Shown here in pieces: positions 4,070-47,244 of a DNA stretch of 64,000 bases. A program made the position numbers and the translations under genes. This DNA is from Oscillospiraceae bacterium (lineage in GTDB: Bacteria > Bacillota > Clostridia > Oscillospirales > QAMX01), in contig SVLQ01000008.1 in NCBI GenBank assembly GCA_015067825.1, forward strand, positions 777 to 64,776, written 5' to 3'. Below the pieces are notes generated by a model, which saw only the letters and a list, made by a program, of their open reading frames with translations, had not been told where the DNA came from and did no database searches. How positions within the stretch are numbered: position 1 is the first letter of the stretch; each line of letters opens with the position of its first letter.

Positions 4070-4729
4070 ATGCAAACCCAAAACCGAACCAAACAACTCG
4101 CCGTGCTCGCCATGCTTTCGGCGCTTGCCTATGTGGCCGTCGTCGTCTGCCGCATCCCCGTGGTGCTGTTTTTGAAATACGAACCCAAAGACGTCATCAT
4201 TACCCTCGGCGGCTTCCTCTACGGCCCGCTGGCGGCGGTCGCCGTCTCGGTCGTGACCGCCTTCGTCGAAATGTTCACGATCAGCGATACCGGCATCTGG
4301 GGGCTGCTGATGAATATTCTTTCCAGCTGTGCCTTCGCCGGAACGGCGTCGCTGATCTACCATCGCCGCCGCACGCTCTTAGGCGCGGCGATCGCGCTGA
4401 TCGCGGGAATTGCTGCCACTACGGCAATCATGCTCCTCTGGAACTACCTCGTCACACCGCTTTATATGAAGGTCCCGCGCGAAACGGTCGTCCAGCTGCT
4501 GATCCCGGCATTCCTGCCCTTTAACCTCCTCAAGGGAACGCTGAACGCCGCGCTTTTGATGCTTCTTTACCAGCCGGTCGTCACGGCGCTGCGCCGTGCC
4601 CGTCTGGTTCCGCCGTCGTCGGCGAAAAAAGCCGGCGTTGTCCGCACCTACGTTTCGGTCGCGGTCATCGCGCTGGTCGTGGTCGGCGGATGCGTGCTGG
4701 CCGTGCTTGCGATGCGCGGCGTGATCTGA
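4070..4729 (+). CDS. ribU: riboflavin transporter, ECF-type S component
   Basis: ORF 3776-4729 trimmed to ATG 4070, because the upstream part is the riboswitch. Multi-TM protein typical of RibU-family S components. FMN riboswitch lies immediately upstream. Confidence 0.8.
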   Translation: MQTQNRTKQLAVLAMLSALAYVAVVVCRIPVVLFLKYEPKDVIITLGGFLYGPLAAVAVSVVTAFVEMFTISDTGIWGLLMNILSSCAFAGTASLIYHRRRTLLGAAIALIAGIAATTAIMLLWNYLVTPLYMKVPRETVVQLLIPAFLPFNLLKGTLNAALLMLLYQPVVTALRRARLVPPSSAKKAGVVRTYVSVAVIALVVVGGCVLAVLAMRGVI

Positions 4730-45001: not shown

Positions 45002-45076
<75 letters not shown>

Positions 45077-45109: not shown

Positions 45110-45292
45110 CAGTGAAATTCGCCTTCGGCGAGTGAAATATGGCTTCGCCATGTGAAATAGCGACGCTGTGAAATATTTGCTGCGCAAATGTGAAGAGGCG
45201 AATTTCATTTCACATTGCGACCAAAGGGAGCAATATTTCACAATTCACGAAGTGAATGATTTCACATTCGGCAACACCGAATATTTCACTAA
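45109..45292. repeat. GTGAAAT/ATTTCAC heptamer-plus-hairpin array, copy 2 (complete)
   Basis: GTGAAAT at 45112, 45132, 45152 and 45168 (GTGAAG at 45190). ATTTCAC at 45207, 45235, 45259 and 45283. Every inter-heptamer spacer is a flush self-complementary hairpin. Confidence 0.8.
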
Positions 45293-45322: not shown

Positions 45323-45374
45323 ACAAAAAGAAAGTCGTACACCAAAGGCTTCGGGTTCTTAAGGACAGTTTTTA
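45323..45374. repeat. Left inverted repeat bracketing the XRE-TPR cassette
   Basis: ACAAAAAGAAAGTCGTACACC…GTTCTTAAGGACAGTTTTTA. The reverse complement recurs at 47055-47105, with identical 15-bp and 19-bp arms and a divergent roughly 12-bp centre. Confidence 0.75.
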
Positions 45375-45412
45375 CAATAAAACAACAGACCGGCGAACGA
45401 TTACAGCCAAAG

Positions 45413-45545
45413 GCTCCCTTGTGTAAAGGGAGCTGTCAGCGAAGCTGACTGAGGGATTGTTTTTATGAGAAATTTAGTTCTTACAATCCCTTCGTCACGG
45501 CTACGCCGCGCCACCTCCCTTTACACAAGGGAGGCTTTTTCTTTG
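45413..45545. repeat. Nested hairpin/inverted-repeat module ending in a terminator-like hairpin
   Basis: gctccctt-gtgta-aagggagc (45413-45433) and its inverse cctccctt-tacac-aagggagg (45514-45534, followed by cttttt). These enclose the hairpins gtcagc-gaa-gctgac and agggattgt…acaatccct. Confidence 0.6.
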
Positions 45546-45601
45546 CCTGCAAGTGCGCACTTCCTCACCACCGAACATGGCGGGGAAATTTCATAAAGTA
45601 T

Positions 45602-45645
45602 AAGCCTCCGATAAAAAATTCTTTCTCATCGGAGGCTTGTTTTGT
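45602..45645. terminator. Hairpin terminator downstream of the XRE-TPR gene
   Basis: aagcctccgat / atcggaggctt stem with a 15-nt loop and T-rich flanks. Confidence 0.5.
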
Positions 45646-45707
45646 TTACATATTTATTTTTTATTTGATAATTTTTGTTTTCAATTTATCCAATTGTTAA
45701 GTTTTAC

Positions 45708-46832
45708 CTATTGAATAGTTAGAGATTCCGCTTCAGATAAAATAGCAGACCAACGTTCTTCATTTCTGACGCTATTAAACCATTCCCAACCCTTTTCTGC
45801 TTCCATAATACTTGCAAGGCTTGCTATTTCGCTCTTAAATCCTTGAAGAATAGGTAGCTTCTCTCCGTTCGGCAATTGAATATGCCAATCGTTTCTTATA
45901 AGCTTGGTTTCGCCAAAGAATAGCGGATTTCCTAAATCAAGCAATGCGTTCTCGGGGAATTCATGCCATCGTTTGCTTAATTCAAGAGCTTTTTCCAAAT
46001 ACGAATATCCGTTTTCATTATCTCCCAATCCAAAATACGCGGCAGACAATCTAATGTACTGCATAGTATACTCAGGGATCCAAGCATCAGGAATCGTATT
46101 TTGCGTGATTCCGATTAGAATGTTGAGATACATCGTATTCCACGCCACCGAATCTTCCGGCTTGCCAATATAACTTTTATGCTCGCGCATTCTCGCAATC
46201 ATCGCAGAGGTCCGCAGAAAGTTCCCGGCATTTCTTATTATCCAATATTTTTCTTCCTGACCAGATAGCTTATAGCGTTTTTCATAAATTTCATGTCTGC
46301 CTTCATACCAAAAGGTTGAGTCTCTATTCAATAACGCTCCAATCTCTTCCTCATCACATACCATACACATTGCAGTAACCGCACTTCTGCGCATAGTGCT
46401 ATCGGTACAGTCTTTTAAAATTCTCTCGCCAATGTCCACAAGTCGTTTTCTATATTCGTCCTCCATGTTTCCGTGATAGCGAGTGATTCTGTGCATAAGC
46501 GATGTTGCAATATGCCAATTTCGAGGATATTTTTTATGATATTTAAGTGCTAAATCCAGTTGTTCATCGAGTGAAAGAGAATTTATAACATTAAAAAAGT
46601 TTTTTTGTACATCTTCTTTGGCATTTATTTCATCATTGCCTATTAGTTCATCAACAGTTACCTCAAAAAAATTGGCAATGGCCGGAAGAAGCGTAATATC
46701 GGGATATCCGTCTCCGCATTCCCACTTGGAAATCGATTGAGGCGATACCATCAATGCTTGAGCTAAGGCATCTTGAGTCATTTCTTTGTTTTTACGATAT
46801 TTTTTTATTCTTTCGCCAATCAACAAATCCAT
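45708..46832 (-). CDS. XRE-family HTH transcriptional regulator with TPR-like C-terminal domain
   Basis: 374 aa. The N-terminal HTH_3 region reads IGERIKKYRKNKEMTQDALAQALMVSPQSISKWECG. The helical repeat C-terminus is reminiscent of the RNPP architecture. The gene is markedly AT-rich compared with its neighbours. Confidence 0.8.
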   Translation of the reverse strand: MDLLIGERIKKYRKNKEMTQDALAQALMVSPQSISKWECGDGYPDITLLPAIANFFEVTVDELIGNDEINAKEDVQKNFFNVINSLSLDEQLDLALKYHKKYPRNWHIATSLMHRITRYHGNMEDEYRKRLVDIGERILKDCTDSTMRRSAVTAMCMVCDEEEIGALLNRDSTFWYEGRHEIYEKRYKLSGQEEKYWIIRNAGNFLRTSAMIARMREHKSYIGKPEDSVAWNTMYLNILIGITQNTIPDAWIPEYTMQYIRLSAAYFGLGDNENGYSYLEKALELSKRWHEFPENALLDLGNPLFFGETKLIRNDWHIQLPNGEKLPILQGFKSEIASLASIMEAEKGWEWFNSVRNEERWSAILSEAESLTIQ

Positions 46833-47004
46833 AATTTACTCCTTTCTATAAATGATTGTGATTTATCTTATACGACGGGCCCTGTCGTTGTAATTATTTT
46901 ATCACAACGATAAATGTCAGTCAATAACCGCGTTTTTGCGTAATTTACCACTATCGGTTGTTTTTTACTCGTTTGAGTTGATATGTATGCAACAATCAAC
47001 AATA

Positions 47005-47035
47005 AAAACGAGCCAATTTTTAGTTGGCTCGTTTT
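47005..47035. terminator. Bidirectional hairpin terminator/insulator
   Basis: aaaacgagccaa-tttttag-ttggctcgtttt. Confidence 0.6.
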
Positions 47036-47054
47036 CGATAATTTATGGGGTATT

Positions 47055-47105
47055 TAAAAACTGTCCTTAAGAACACGTTCCAAAGGTGTGCGACTTTCTT
47101 TTTGT
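47055..47105. repeat. Right inverted repeat bracketing the XRE-TPR cassette
   Basis: TAAAAACTGTCCTTAAGAAC…GGTGTGCGACTTTCTTTTTGT, the reverse complement of 45323-45374. Confidence 0.75.
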
Positions 47106-47244
47106 ATGCTTCACGCTTCATCCAAACTCGCGGAAGGAGAAGGAAGCCTTCCGGCAAGCGGTTATTCTTGACCCTTTACGGAGCGTGTGATATAATAAGC
47201 ACAAAGCGATGGTGCGATGAAAAACAAGGCGTGGTGAAGACTAC

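Follow-up and report, generated by a model that had tools for sequence, protein, structure and literature searches.

A gene-carrying element without a transposase, probably inserted in the loop of a host terminator hairpin, and its relatives in gut Clostridia

Within a 64,000-nucleotide stretch of an Oscillospiraceae contig (the window), positions 45347-47082 very probably constitute a transposable element of 1736 bp, non-autonomous and with cargo, that is of the mobile insertion cassette (MIC) kind and lies inside the loop of a host terminator hairpin. Its terminal inverted repeats are imperfect, 28 bp long and built on the conserved core TTAAGGACAGTTTT. The insertion point would be the centre of the loop of an intrinsic-terminator hairpin, located between a tRNA-Gly/Gut-1 region and the promoter of a URO-D-family gene; insertion would have duplicated 2 bp (AA/TT) and moved the two halves of the stem 1.7 kb apart. 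The element's own inward-facing terminators would substitute for the terminator destroyed by the insertion, and the element would also bring an XRE-TPR regulator under its own promoter. Sequence comparison places it in a large family of modular build that is found in gut Clostridia. The features of the element and its target are as follows.

45323-45343 (+) and 47085-47105 (-): outer repeat arm, ACAAAAAGAAAGTCG(T/C)ACACC; repeat search, 21 nt, 95%
45355-45374 (+) and 47055-47074 (-): inner repeat arm, GTTCTTAAGGACAGTTTTTA; repeat search, 23 nt, 96%
45323-45344 (no strand): left half of the host target hairpin (A-run, stem GAAAGTCGTACACC, A), complementary to 47085-47105 and outside the element
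45345-45346 (no strand): left 2-bp target-site duplication, AA, from the offset scan and matching flanks
45347-45374 (+): left terminal inverted repeat, GGCTTCGGGTTCTTAAGGACAGTTTTTA; 23 of 28 positions equal the reverse complement of the right end
45409-45538 (no strand): palindromic backbone module of about 130 nt, CTCCCTTGTGTAAAGGGAG ... reverse complement, with 27-nt arms (93%)
45602-45638 (no strand): internal terminator hairpin just past the 3' end of the cargo gene, with a 17-pair stem; conserved in L001, L002, L013 and L016
45708-46832 (-): cargo gene, 374 aa, XRE-type HTH plus all-helical TPR-like domain (Pfam HTH_3 and AlphaFold model)
46872-46888 (-): palindrome ACGACGGGCCCTGTCGT after the promoter-like site, conserved upstream of the homologues in L001 and L013
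46896-46924 (-): promoter-like site of the cargo gene, TTGACT-17-TAAAAT, from a promoter/terminator scan
47004-47036 (-): inward-facing terminator at the right end, a 13-pair stem followed by a T-run; conserved in homologous cassettes
47055-47082 (-): right terminal inverted repeat (reverse complement TGGAACGTGTTCTTAAGGACAGTTTTTA); cross-copy homology ends at 47077-47078
47083-47084 (no strand): right 2-bp duplication, AA, from the offset scan and matching flanks
47085-47105 (no strand): right half of the host target hairpin, stem GGTGTGCGACTTTC then T-run, locus-specific; complementary to 45323-45343 with one mismatch

The first-pass annotation of this locus described inverted repeats of about 52 bp at 45323-45374 and 47055-47105, and re-reading of the sequence confirmed them. 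Each arm occurs exactly twice in the 64 kb at up to three mismatches, against shuffle expectations of 0.00 and 0.01. The enclosed segment indeed holds a single real gene and two terminator-like hairpins (45602-45638 and 47004-47036), and CCAAAGG does lie on the plus strand in both copies (45342-45348 and 47080-47086). The 52-bp repeat is, however, composite: the element accounts for its inner 28 nt alone, and the outer arm is a split, site-specific host hairpin. Because the insertion split this hairpin and separated its stem halves, each repeat is composed of a stem half, the duplication and an element end. The supposed crossover core in direct orientation accordingly dissolves into a 2-bp AA target duplication between the closing C/G pairs of the hairpin, CCAAAGG being made up of the stem-closing CC, an A plus the duplicated AA, and GG. 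A duplication of all 7 bp was rejected, as the offset scan (lengths of 2, 3, 4, 5 and 7) gave at most one match at 7 bp versus 32 at 2 bp. The reading of the repeats as a common dispersed repeat, which the annotation had named as a refutation, held for the inner arm, which is a dispersed element end, and failed for the outer arm, which is specific to the locus.

The boundaries are supported by comparison with loci carrying 94-97% identical copies, in which blastn homology is lost at about 45345-45370 and at 47077-47078 and the outer arms are excluded. The GC content of the cassette is low (0.31-0.42), with flanking maxima of 0.55-0.69 on the left, beyond the tRNA/Gut-1 stretch, and 0.50-0.60 on the right. 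When the empty site at the locus was reconstructed, it folded at -31.5 kcal/mol (z -10.5), and the six sites reconstructed in this way ranged from -16 to -31.5 kcal/mol, with z-scores between -4.9 and -10.5. The hairpin begins directly after a stop codon in L001 and L002. The inward-facing terminator at 47004-47036 would, by its sequence and position, shield the cargo promoter against read-through from outside. A scan of metagenome contigs for the intact hairpin (AAAGTCGYACACC-N1-10-GGTGTRCGACTTT) gave no match, and metagenomic relatives of the URO-D gene all came from loci of at most 65% identity. A 79%-identical URO-D orthologue is not syntenic, and contigs with Dus orthologues stop before the site; the empty site at this locus was not recovered.

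The suggestion that the repeats are the ends of a non-autonomous mobile cassette gained support from near-identical cassettes elsewhere and from the occurrence of the end motif with varied cargo. Cassettes of 94-97% identity stand in at least four other genomic contexts, each within a different hairpin. The surroundings are unrelated: an inverted flank of its own, differing from the others, accompanies the cassette next to a TrxB-like gene (L001), an ABC transporter/DUF3899 (L013) and DUF2178/PGA_cap (L016), as well as an 84%-identical copy beside a cytidylate-kinase-like/URO-D context (L002).

These copies also bear on whether the locus is an invertible phase-variable switch, with the 52-bp repeats serving as recombination sites for an invertase whose gene lies elsewhere in the genome. 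Such a switch would show this arrangement, long inverted repeats around one regulator gene that has a promoter of its own, and repeats of this length could also allow rare RecA-dependent flipping. We built both hypothetical inverted junctions and searched for them in 12 related assembled contigs. Four left and 10 right native junctions were found and no inverted one; site-specific inversion, as the first-pass annotation had envisaged it, is unsupported because all 11 independent metagenome contigs show the native orientation. Moreover, the same cassette is found at other genomic sites, and the outer half of the repeat is a locus-specific terminator, while its inner half is a dispersed transposon end that also flanks unrelated cargo. 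No invertase was noticed nearby among the long open reading frames (ORFs) of the window, and the earlier remark that a recombinase is missing agrees with our inspection of all 59 by eye and by two simple motif searches, four of them also by Pfam search. We regard an invertible switch as highly unlikely.

How widely the ends are dispersed became apparent from the inner 18-mer TCTTAAGGACAGTTTTTA: 93 genome stretches contain it, and about 87 of these belong to Clostridia MAGs from the guts of ruminants, horses and other hosts; the outer arm, by contrast, is confined to its locus. Most of the 93 stretches have no homologue of the XRE-TPR gene, and the same ends are paired in more than 30 other loci. 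Cassettes with other cargo were indeed found, carrying for instance sigma factors, DUF559, NUDIX, MatE or XRE-methyltransferase regulators, as well as a Cys-rich protein, and some members are cargo-less. Two size classes can be told apart, cargo-less elements of 280-450 bp and cargo-bearing ones of 0.8-4 kb (regulators, sigma factors, small enzymes). The ends, too, are modular, and at least three types of them occur. The palindromic module of about 130 nt also occurs in at least three cargo-less members (L060, L038, L052) and, with a variant stem, in L099. An Rfam scan of the cassette in the window returned no match. Many metagenome contigs end inside the cassette, as expected for a multi-copy repeat.

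The hairpin context extends to the family as a whole. Across 29 complete elements, the 10 nt bordering one end are the reverse complement, with at most one mismatch, of the 10 nt bordering the other; these flanks differ from locus to locus, and nearly all flanks have an A-run before and a T-run after the element. Exceptions to the hairpin rule are L040, L059 and a tandem pair in L106.

If the repeats were instead operators or insulators of the XRE gene, mobility would play no part, and binding of the regulator to both copies would draw its own locus into a loop. The motif does bracket homologous XRE genes in L001, L002, L013 and L016. The same TTAAGGACAG ends, however, surround elements devoid of any HTH gene (Cys-rich protein, DUF559, NUDIX, MatE, sigma factor or no cargo), and an 83%-identical homologue in L008-L011 lacks such ends, which makes this explanation scarcely credible.

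The target duplication was delimited by the offset scan, in which a 2-bp repeat 14 nt outside the AAGGACAG anchor was seen in 32 of 59 candidate pairs, the next best offset reaching 15. At this position, the dinucleotide is the same on both sides in 28 of the 29 validated elements. It varies among elements (TT, TA, AT, AA) and matches from side to side, which fits a duplication derived from the target. Among the 19 asymmetric elements, the dinucleotide at the "B" end is TT in 16, AA in two and AT in one, and five of seven symmetric-ended elements have the palindromic TA. Within the XRE cassette lineage, TT flanks occur at four sites and TA on both sides in L001.

No transposase of any kind came to light. 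Pfam matches of the cargo proteins are to regulators and enzymes and include no transposase. Clustering of ORFs over the 93 stretches (up to 8 kb) revealed no recurrent transposase or recombinase family, and no IS30-type transposase was seen in them. Scans of viral contigs with both end types gave no match; BLAST against plasmids and phages returned the internal hairpin module only, a Vescimonas replicon and contigs from human faeces each having part of it, and no autonomous relative. None of the genome, viral, plasmid and phage collections yielded a parent element with these ends. In L119, a solo end lies next to TnpV and a small tyrosine recombinase, a constellation repeated in no other locus. 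Since the elements contain no transposase, they would have to be mobilised from elsewhere in the genome, by an enzyme that acts in trans and cuts terminator-like palindromes at their dyad centre with a stagger of 2 bp. Abutted, the two ends would form such a palindrome themselves (A-run, 22-bp stem, T-run), so that donor junction and target would be alike in shape; for the element in the window, a circle junction, if formed, would read ...AAGAACACGTTCCA-AA-GGCTTCGGGTTCTT....

The likeliest mobilising enzyme, tentatively and at somewhat less than an even chance, would be an IS30-type DDE transposase. IS30-type elements produce duplications of 2-3 bp, have inverted repeats of 20-30 bp, prefer palindromic targets and pass through an intermediate with the ends abutted 2 bp apart; the targets of IS1630 of Mycoplasma fermentans derive from rho-independent terminators. 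The element described here shares the 2-bp duplication and the palindromic target with this family. Unlike the IS30 family, it comes with no IS30-type transposase in any locus that we examined. IS1630, furthermore, duplicates the whole inverted repeat of 16-26 bp (PMC3317919), whereas here the hairpin is split and 2 bp alone are duplicated.

The dinucleotide pattern is where conservative site-specific recombination enters as a competing explanation, one that we consider improbable. In an excised circle, the two ends would meet at a 2-bp core (T-T or T-A). Strand exchange with the same dinucleotide in a terminator loop would be the work of a serine recombinase, either Tn4451 TnpX-like or IS607-like, or of a tyrosine recombinase that recognises hairpins, and the flanking "duplication" would be the shared core dinucleotide. 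A strongly element-oriented duplication is unusual for a DDE transposase, and in serine recombinases polarity is set by a non-palindromic 2-bp core. Site-specific recombination would thus suit both the fixed orientation of the dinucleotide relative to two unlike ends (TT 16, AA 2, AT 1) and the preference of symmetric-ended elements for palindromic TA (5/7). It would also suit the target-like shape of the abutted ends (A-run, 22-bp stem, T-run palindrome), a chromosomal hairpin in L105 that is built from the end motif, and the presence of TnpV, named after Tn4451, as cargo in five loci (L042, L064, L074, L112, L119). Against it, a serine recombinase was seen neither in nor near any element nor among recurrent neighbours, a single XRE lineage has both TT and TA flanks, which a fixed core should forbid, and the target stems have no common sequence, in which they depart from the attB sites known for serine integrases. 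We also rejected an integron cassette (attC) and a bridge-RNA (IS110-type) reading: there is no sequence common to the targets, no conserved G precedes the site, and one element uses different targets.

A further, bolder proposal, which we hold to be possible but rather doubtful, is that the elements may represent an undescribed class of bacterial mobile element recombining hairpin with hairpin. Once joined, the ends would look like an intrinsic terminator (A-run, stem, T-rich loop, T-run), and an enzyme encoded elsewhere in the genome would read structure rather than sequence and place the element in the loop of practically any terminator. Gut-1, an orphan Rfam family, would then be an internal module of one element subtype and not a free-standing small RNA. 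Such elements would have thousands of harmless landing sites and would spread regulators through gut Clostridia.

Taken as a mobile insertion cassette, the element is best likened to other non-autonomous elements with terminal inverted repeats, for example MIC231 of Bacillus cereus, the qnrD/qnrS2 MICs and the Correia elements of Neisseria (for MICs, see PMC3913671, PMC5444012). With these MICs and MITEs, it has in common terminal inverted repeats, a short target duplication, the lack of a transposase, the presence of passenger genes in some members and their absence from others, dispersal in many copies, and promoters and terminators within the element. It differs in that our searches found no parent insertion sequence whose ends match, in the insertion almost always at the loop of an intrinsic-terminator hairpin, in a 2-bp duplication (T-T or T-A) oriented with the element, and in the modular ends.

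Extragenic hairpin targeting is nearly harmless to the host and is known from several elements: IS1397 and ISKpn1 insert in REP sequences, and class C group II introns adjoin terminators. Members of the IS110 family likewise insert in REP sequences, among them ISPpu9 (PMC12288879). All of these direct insertion to extragenic hairpin-forming sequences, as does the present family, but they encode their own transposase or reverse transcriptase, which the present elements do not. In addition, REP targets are conserved in sequence whereas the target stems here are unrelated, and group II introns insert after the hairpin whereas the present element lies in the loop.

If the MIC reading is correct, gut and rumen Clostridia harbour an abundant family of small cassettes almost confined to terminator loops; our literature search found no description of a MITE or MIC in Clostridia that targets terminator loops. 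Landing there would be cheap for the host because each element carries its own terminators. The family would account for the copying and shuffling of XRE-type regulators, sigma factors and small enzymes in these genomes, would explain why such genes lie on short, broken metagenome contigs, and it would give the orphan Gut-1 RNA motif a context. Mechanistically, the question it raises is which enzyme would know a terminator from its shape and cleave the loop with a stagger of 2 bp; one that places kilobase cargo at terminators could serve as an integration tool. For annotation, the locus is a warning that long inverted repeats around a gene can be a transposon end plus a split hairpin and not an invertible switch.

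The cargo protein matches Pfam HTH_3 (E 2e-13), with TPR matches below the cut-off and no sequence-level match beyond the HTH. A role in defence or in phages was dismissed, as PADLOC, PHROGs and NCBIfam match the HTH alone. The RNPP-like architecture proposed in the first-pass annotation is weakly supported: the best Foldseek PDB matches are ComR, PlcR, Rgg2 and PrgX (E 1e-4 to 1e-2), at TM-scores of only about 0.2 and an rmsd of 17-19 Å. Like the RNPP regulators (ComR, PlcR, Rgg, PrgX), the protein has an XRE HTH at its N-terminus and, after it, a predicted helical TPR-like domain; unlike them, it shows in its AlphaFold model (pLDDT 88.5) an additional sub-domain at the C-terminus, with four short strands at residues 297-327, and its sequence resemblance ends with the HTH. 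The other ORFs of the cassette of at least 40 aa (40-89 aa) overlap the gene on the opposite strand or fall in the palindromic module, the promoter/5' region or an end repeat, and none of those listed was convincing by eye as a peptide gene. The palindrome at 46872-46888 recurs with one or two changes in L002, L008 and L016.

The first-pass annotation placed a regulator gene between inverted repeats of about 52 bp and read their inverted arms with a directly oriented CCAAAGG core as the geometry of a site-specific inversion or crossover site, or of the ends of a non-autonomous mobile cassette. The sequence is as described: the outer arm ACAAAAAGAAAGTCG(T/C)ACACC lies at 45323-45343 with its reverse complement at 47085-47105, a repeat search returned the inner arm GTTCTTAAGGACAGTTTTTA as an inverted pair at 45355-45374 and 47055-47074, and CCAAAGG reads on the plus strand in both repeat centres (45342-45348 and 47080-47086). 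Each arm has only two copies in the 64-kb window at up to three mismatches (0.00-0.01 expected from shuffles). The repeats do enclose a single credible gene (45708-46832, minus strand, 374 aa, XRE-type HTH with E 2e-13) and two terminator-like hairpins; the GC content between them is 31-42%, compared with up to 55-69% on the left (beyond the tRNA/Gut-1 stretch) and 50-60% on the right.

Features at the locus (window positions)
45002-45076: tRNA-Gly(CCC), left of the element
45110-45179 (+) and 45202-45291 (-): two Gut-1 RNA (RF01706) matches, left of the element
45345-45346 and 47083-47084: duplication, AA
45347-47082: element
right of the element: URO-D-family gene, with a strong promoter-like site at 47168-47196

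Homologues of the cargo protein number in the hundreds in a protein search, and contigs were fetched for several. Cassettes 94-97% identical in DNA to that of the window follow a TrxB-like gene (contig L001), follow an ABC transporter and DUF3899 (L013, L014) or lie between DUF2178 and PGA_cap genes (L016), and in L002-L007 a copy of 84% identity has a cytidylate-kinase-like gene on one side and a convergent URO-D-family gene on the other. The blastn homology to the window ends at ~45345-45370 on the left and at 47077-47078 on the right, so only the inner of the two arms moves with the cassette. Directly outside the conserved part, every compared copy is bracketed by an inverted repeat whose sequence differs from site to site.

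Flanking inverted repeats (left half/right half)
L001: AAACCGAAGG/CCTCGGTTT
L002: TCCCTCGGA/TCCGAGGGA
L013/L014: CACCCTTGA/TCAAGGGTG
L016: TCCTTGGA/TCCGAGGA

At all these sites an A-run stands 5' of the left half and a T-run 3' of the right half, and in L001 and L002 the upstream gene's stop codon is directly followed by the left half. These flanking repeats are intrinsic-terminator hairpins in two halves, split by the cassette. Six restored sites give strong predicted hairpins (-16 to -31.5 kcal/mol, z -4.9 to -10.5); that of the window would be ACAAAAAGAAAGTCGTACACC-AAA-GGTGTGCGACTTTCTTTTTGT. CCAAAGG is thus present but is no crossover core: it consists of the stem-closing CC, a loop A with the duplicated AA, and a GG with which the element begins in the left copy and which closes the stem in the right. 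No empty site was recovered from metagenome contigs scanned for the intact hairpin or from contigs with neighbour-gene orthologues. An exception to the split-hairpin rule is found in L106 (4430-6011), where an XRE-methyltransferase cassette and a 345-bp cargo-less member stand in tandem with one AA common to both; the outer flanks are non-complementary and the right flank is a complete hairpin.

Searching one genome per species for the exact 18-mer TCTTAAGGACAGTTTTTA yielded 93 stretches, a scan that under-samples the true family size and more distant members, including any autonomous one, because an exact match is required. MAGs of Clostridia, Eubacteriales or Oscillospiraceae account for about 87, and many source MAGs are from hindguts (sheep, goat, roe deer, water deer, buffalo, horse); the remaining six, which lie in unrelated phyla or lack the other features of the family, fit chance expectation for an 18-mer. 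Inverted end pairs are 0.3-4 kb apart, cargo-less forms measure 280-450 bp, and a homologue of the XRE-TPR gene is absent from most of the 93 stretches.

Cargo of the family
other XRE-TPR proteins
XRE-HTH fused to a TehB-like methyltransferase
ECF-type sigma factors with long C-terminal extensions
DUF559; NUDIX; ROK plus MatE; SHOCT/DUF4429; TnpV
a small Cys-rich protein; several proteins without a family

The ends are modular: at least three types occur, each type having a distinct sub-terminal module of 100-250 bp. Many MAG contigs end 100-460 bp (mostly 180-330 bp) inside an element end, as expected if the cargo varies beyond a shared module. Metagenome assemblies of the window's species (L012, L021-L026, L202, L203) often end within the promoter-side region of the cassette (~46825-46995), and another recurrent break falls close to the tRNA/Gut-1 repeats, directly past the Dus gene; in these samples, the two regions thus act like multi-copy repeats.

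Direct repeats were scanned from the anchor AAGGACAG at all offsets and lengths for each candidate pair of ends. By far the best solution, which fits 32 of 59 raw pairs (next best 15), was a 2-bp repeat 14 nt beyond the anchor at either end. A 7-bp duplication was rejected, with at most one match. In a stricter set of 29 elements, whose outer 10 nt are reverse-complementary with at most one mismatch, the dinucleotide is the same on both sides in 28. Oriented by end type, asymmetric elements carry TT (16), AA (2, one of them, L060, with a mis-called end type) or AT (1), and five of seven elements with two like ends carry TA. Because the matched flank varies (TT, TA, AT), even within one cassette lineage that has TT at four sites and TA in L001, it is best understood as target sequence duplicated through a staggered cut of 2 bp. 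The orientation of TT is nevertheless fixed relative to the two unlike ends, as a 2-bp recombination core would give, which keeps a serine-recombinase mechanism, with the flank as that core, a live rival.

IS30-type DDE transposases make duplications of 2-3 bp and prefer palindromic targets. Since the flank reads as a staggered-cut duplication, it would point, among known enzymes, to this type as the mover. The IS30-type member IS1630 reportedly targets inverted repeats, going by a title cited in PMC3317919; IS1630 duplicates the whole repeat, unlike the window element with its 2 bp. In L008 (2420-2441 and 3848-3869; also L009-L011), an 83%-identical XRE-TPR homologue without TTAAGGACAG ends has a complete hairpin, CACCGCCGAGAATTCTCGGCGG, on both sides in direct orientation, resembling the whole-repeat duplication reported for IS1630.

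The element ends lie 'inside out': brought together, they would form the series A-run, 22-bp stem, TT, stem and T-run, a target-like shape, and this likeness holds under a transposase or a serine-recombinase mechanism alike. A chromosomal hairpin made of the end motif, AAAAAACTGTCCTTAAGAG-TATAT-TTCTTAAGGACAGTTTTTA (L105, ~835-880), may represent a relic, a site of ancestral type or a favoured target mimicking joined ends.

Pfam profiling of cargo proteins found a transposase in no element, no recombinase family recurs across the 588 ORFs of the 93 stretches, and among the viral contigs, plasmids and phages scanned only the internal hairpin module matched. The window likewise agrees with the earlier reading, no recombinase being noticed among its long ORFs, four of which were run against Pfam. 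In L119 (3533-5596), a solo element end adjoins genes for TnpV (E 3e-40), for a tyrosine recombinase of 278 aa (Phage_integrase, E 3e-26) and for a small HTH protein. Ends in L042, L064, L074 and L112 have TnpV beside them too, and L096 has a TnpV-like ORF; no recombinase is within view near these five.

The junctions give no support to inversion of the 1.7-kb segment. Seventeen metagenome contigs encode the window's exact URO-D protein, and in these assembled contigs and L012 four left and ten right junctions are native, with neither inverted junction seen. The element is a mobile insertion cassette or MITE, unusual among these in its near-exclusive insertion into terminator loops whose stems have no common sequence, its oriented T-T or T-A 2-bp duplication, its modular ends and the lack of an identifiable parent element. 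No description of a family of this kind turned up in full-text literature searches, and the enzyme responsible has a real chance of being new.

For the cargo protein, a confident AlphaFold model from 36 homologues (pLDDT 88.5) predicts an HTH, about 13 helices and a small strand-containing C-terminal sub-domain. The best Foldseek matches in the PDB are ComR, PlcR, Rgg2 and PrgX (E 1e-4 to 1e-2, TM ~0.2); Pfam matches to TPR are sub-threshold only, and sequence profiles gave no match past the HTH. The modelled fold makes the proposed 'RNPP-like architecture' a fair description, whereas membership of the RNPP family is unproven at this TM and with profiles confined to the HTH. Among the short ORFs listed in the cassette, none is convincing as a partner-peptide gene. 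A palindrome between the cargo promoter and start codon (ACGACGGGCCCTGTCGT, 46872-46888), kept in L001 and L013 and differing by one or two changes in L002, L008 and L016, may be an auto-regulatory operator or a hairpin of the 5'-UTR.

A palindromic module of ~130 nt (45409-45538; CTCCCTTGTGTAAAGGGAG ... GTCAGCGAAGCTGAC ... reverse complement) belongs to the element backbone and recurs in cargo-less elements, a Vescimonas fastidiosa replicon and human faecal 'phage' contigs. Its six-frame translation gives recurring pseudo-peptides (e.g. PLCKGS or LPLHKG), which could get mis-annotated as small proteins.

The two Gut-1 matches of the window (67 and 47.7 bits) stand head-to-head and adjoin the target hairpin on its left side. 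A cargo-less family member (L034, 1879-2050) contains the same +/- pair (65 and 52 bits), and L072 has a weaker match (4073-4150). These elements may thus include Gut-1, an orphan candidate small RNA (PMC2864571), as one of their modules. Its 'motif' is an array of GTGAAAT heptamers with small variable hairpins in between, and the sister elements L090, L097 and L098 have the same array layout with TCGATAT in place of GTGAAAT.
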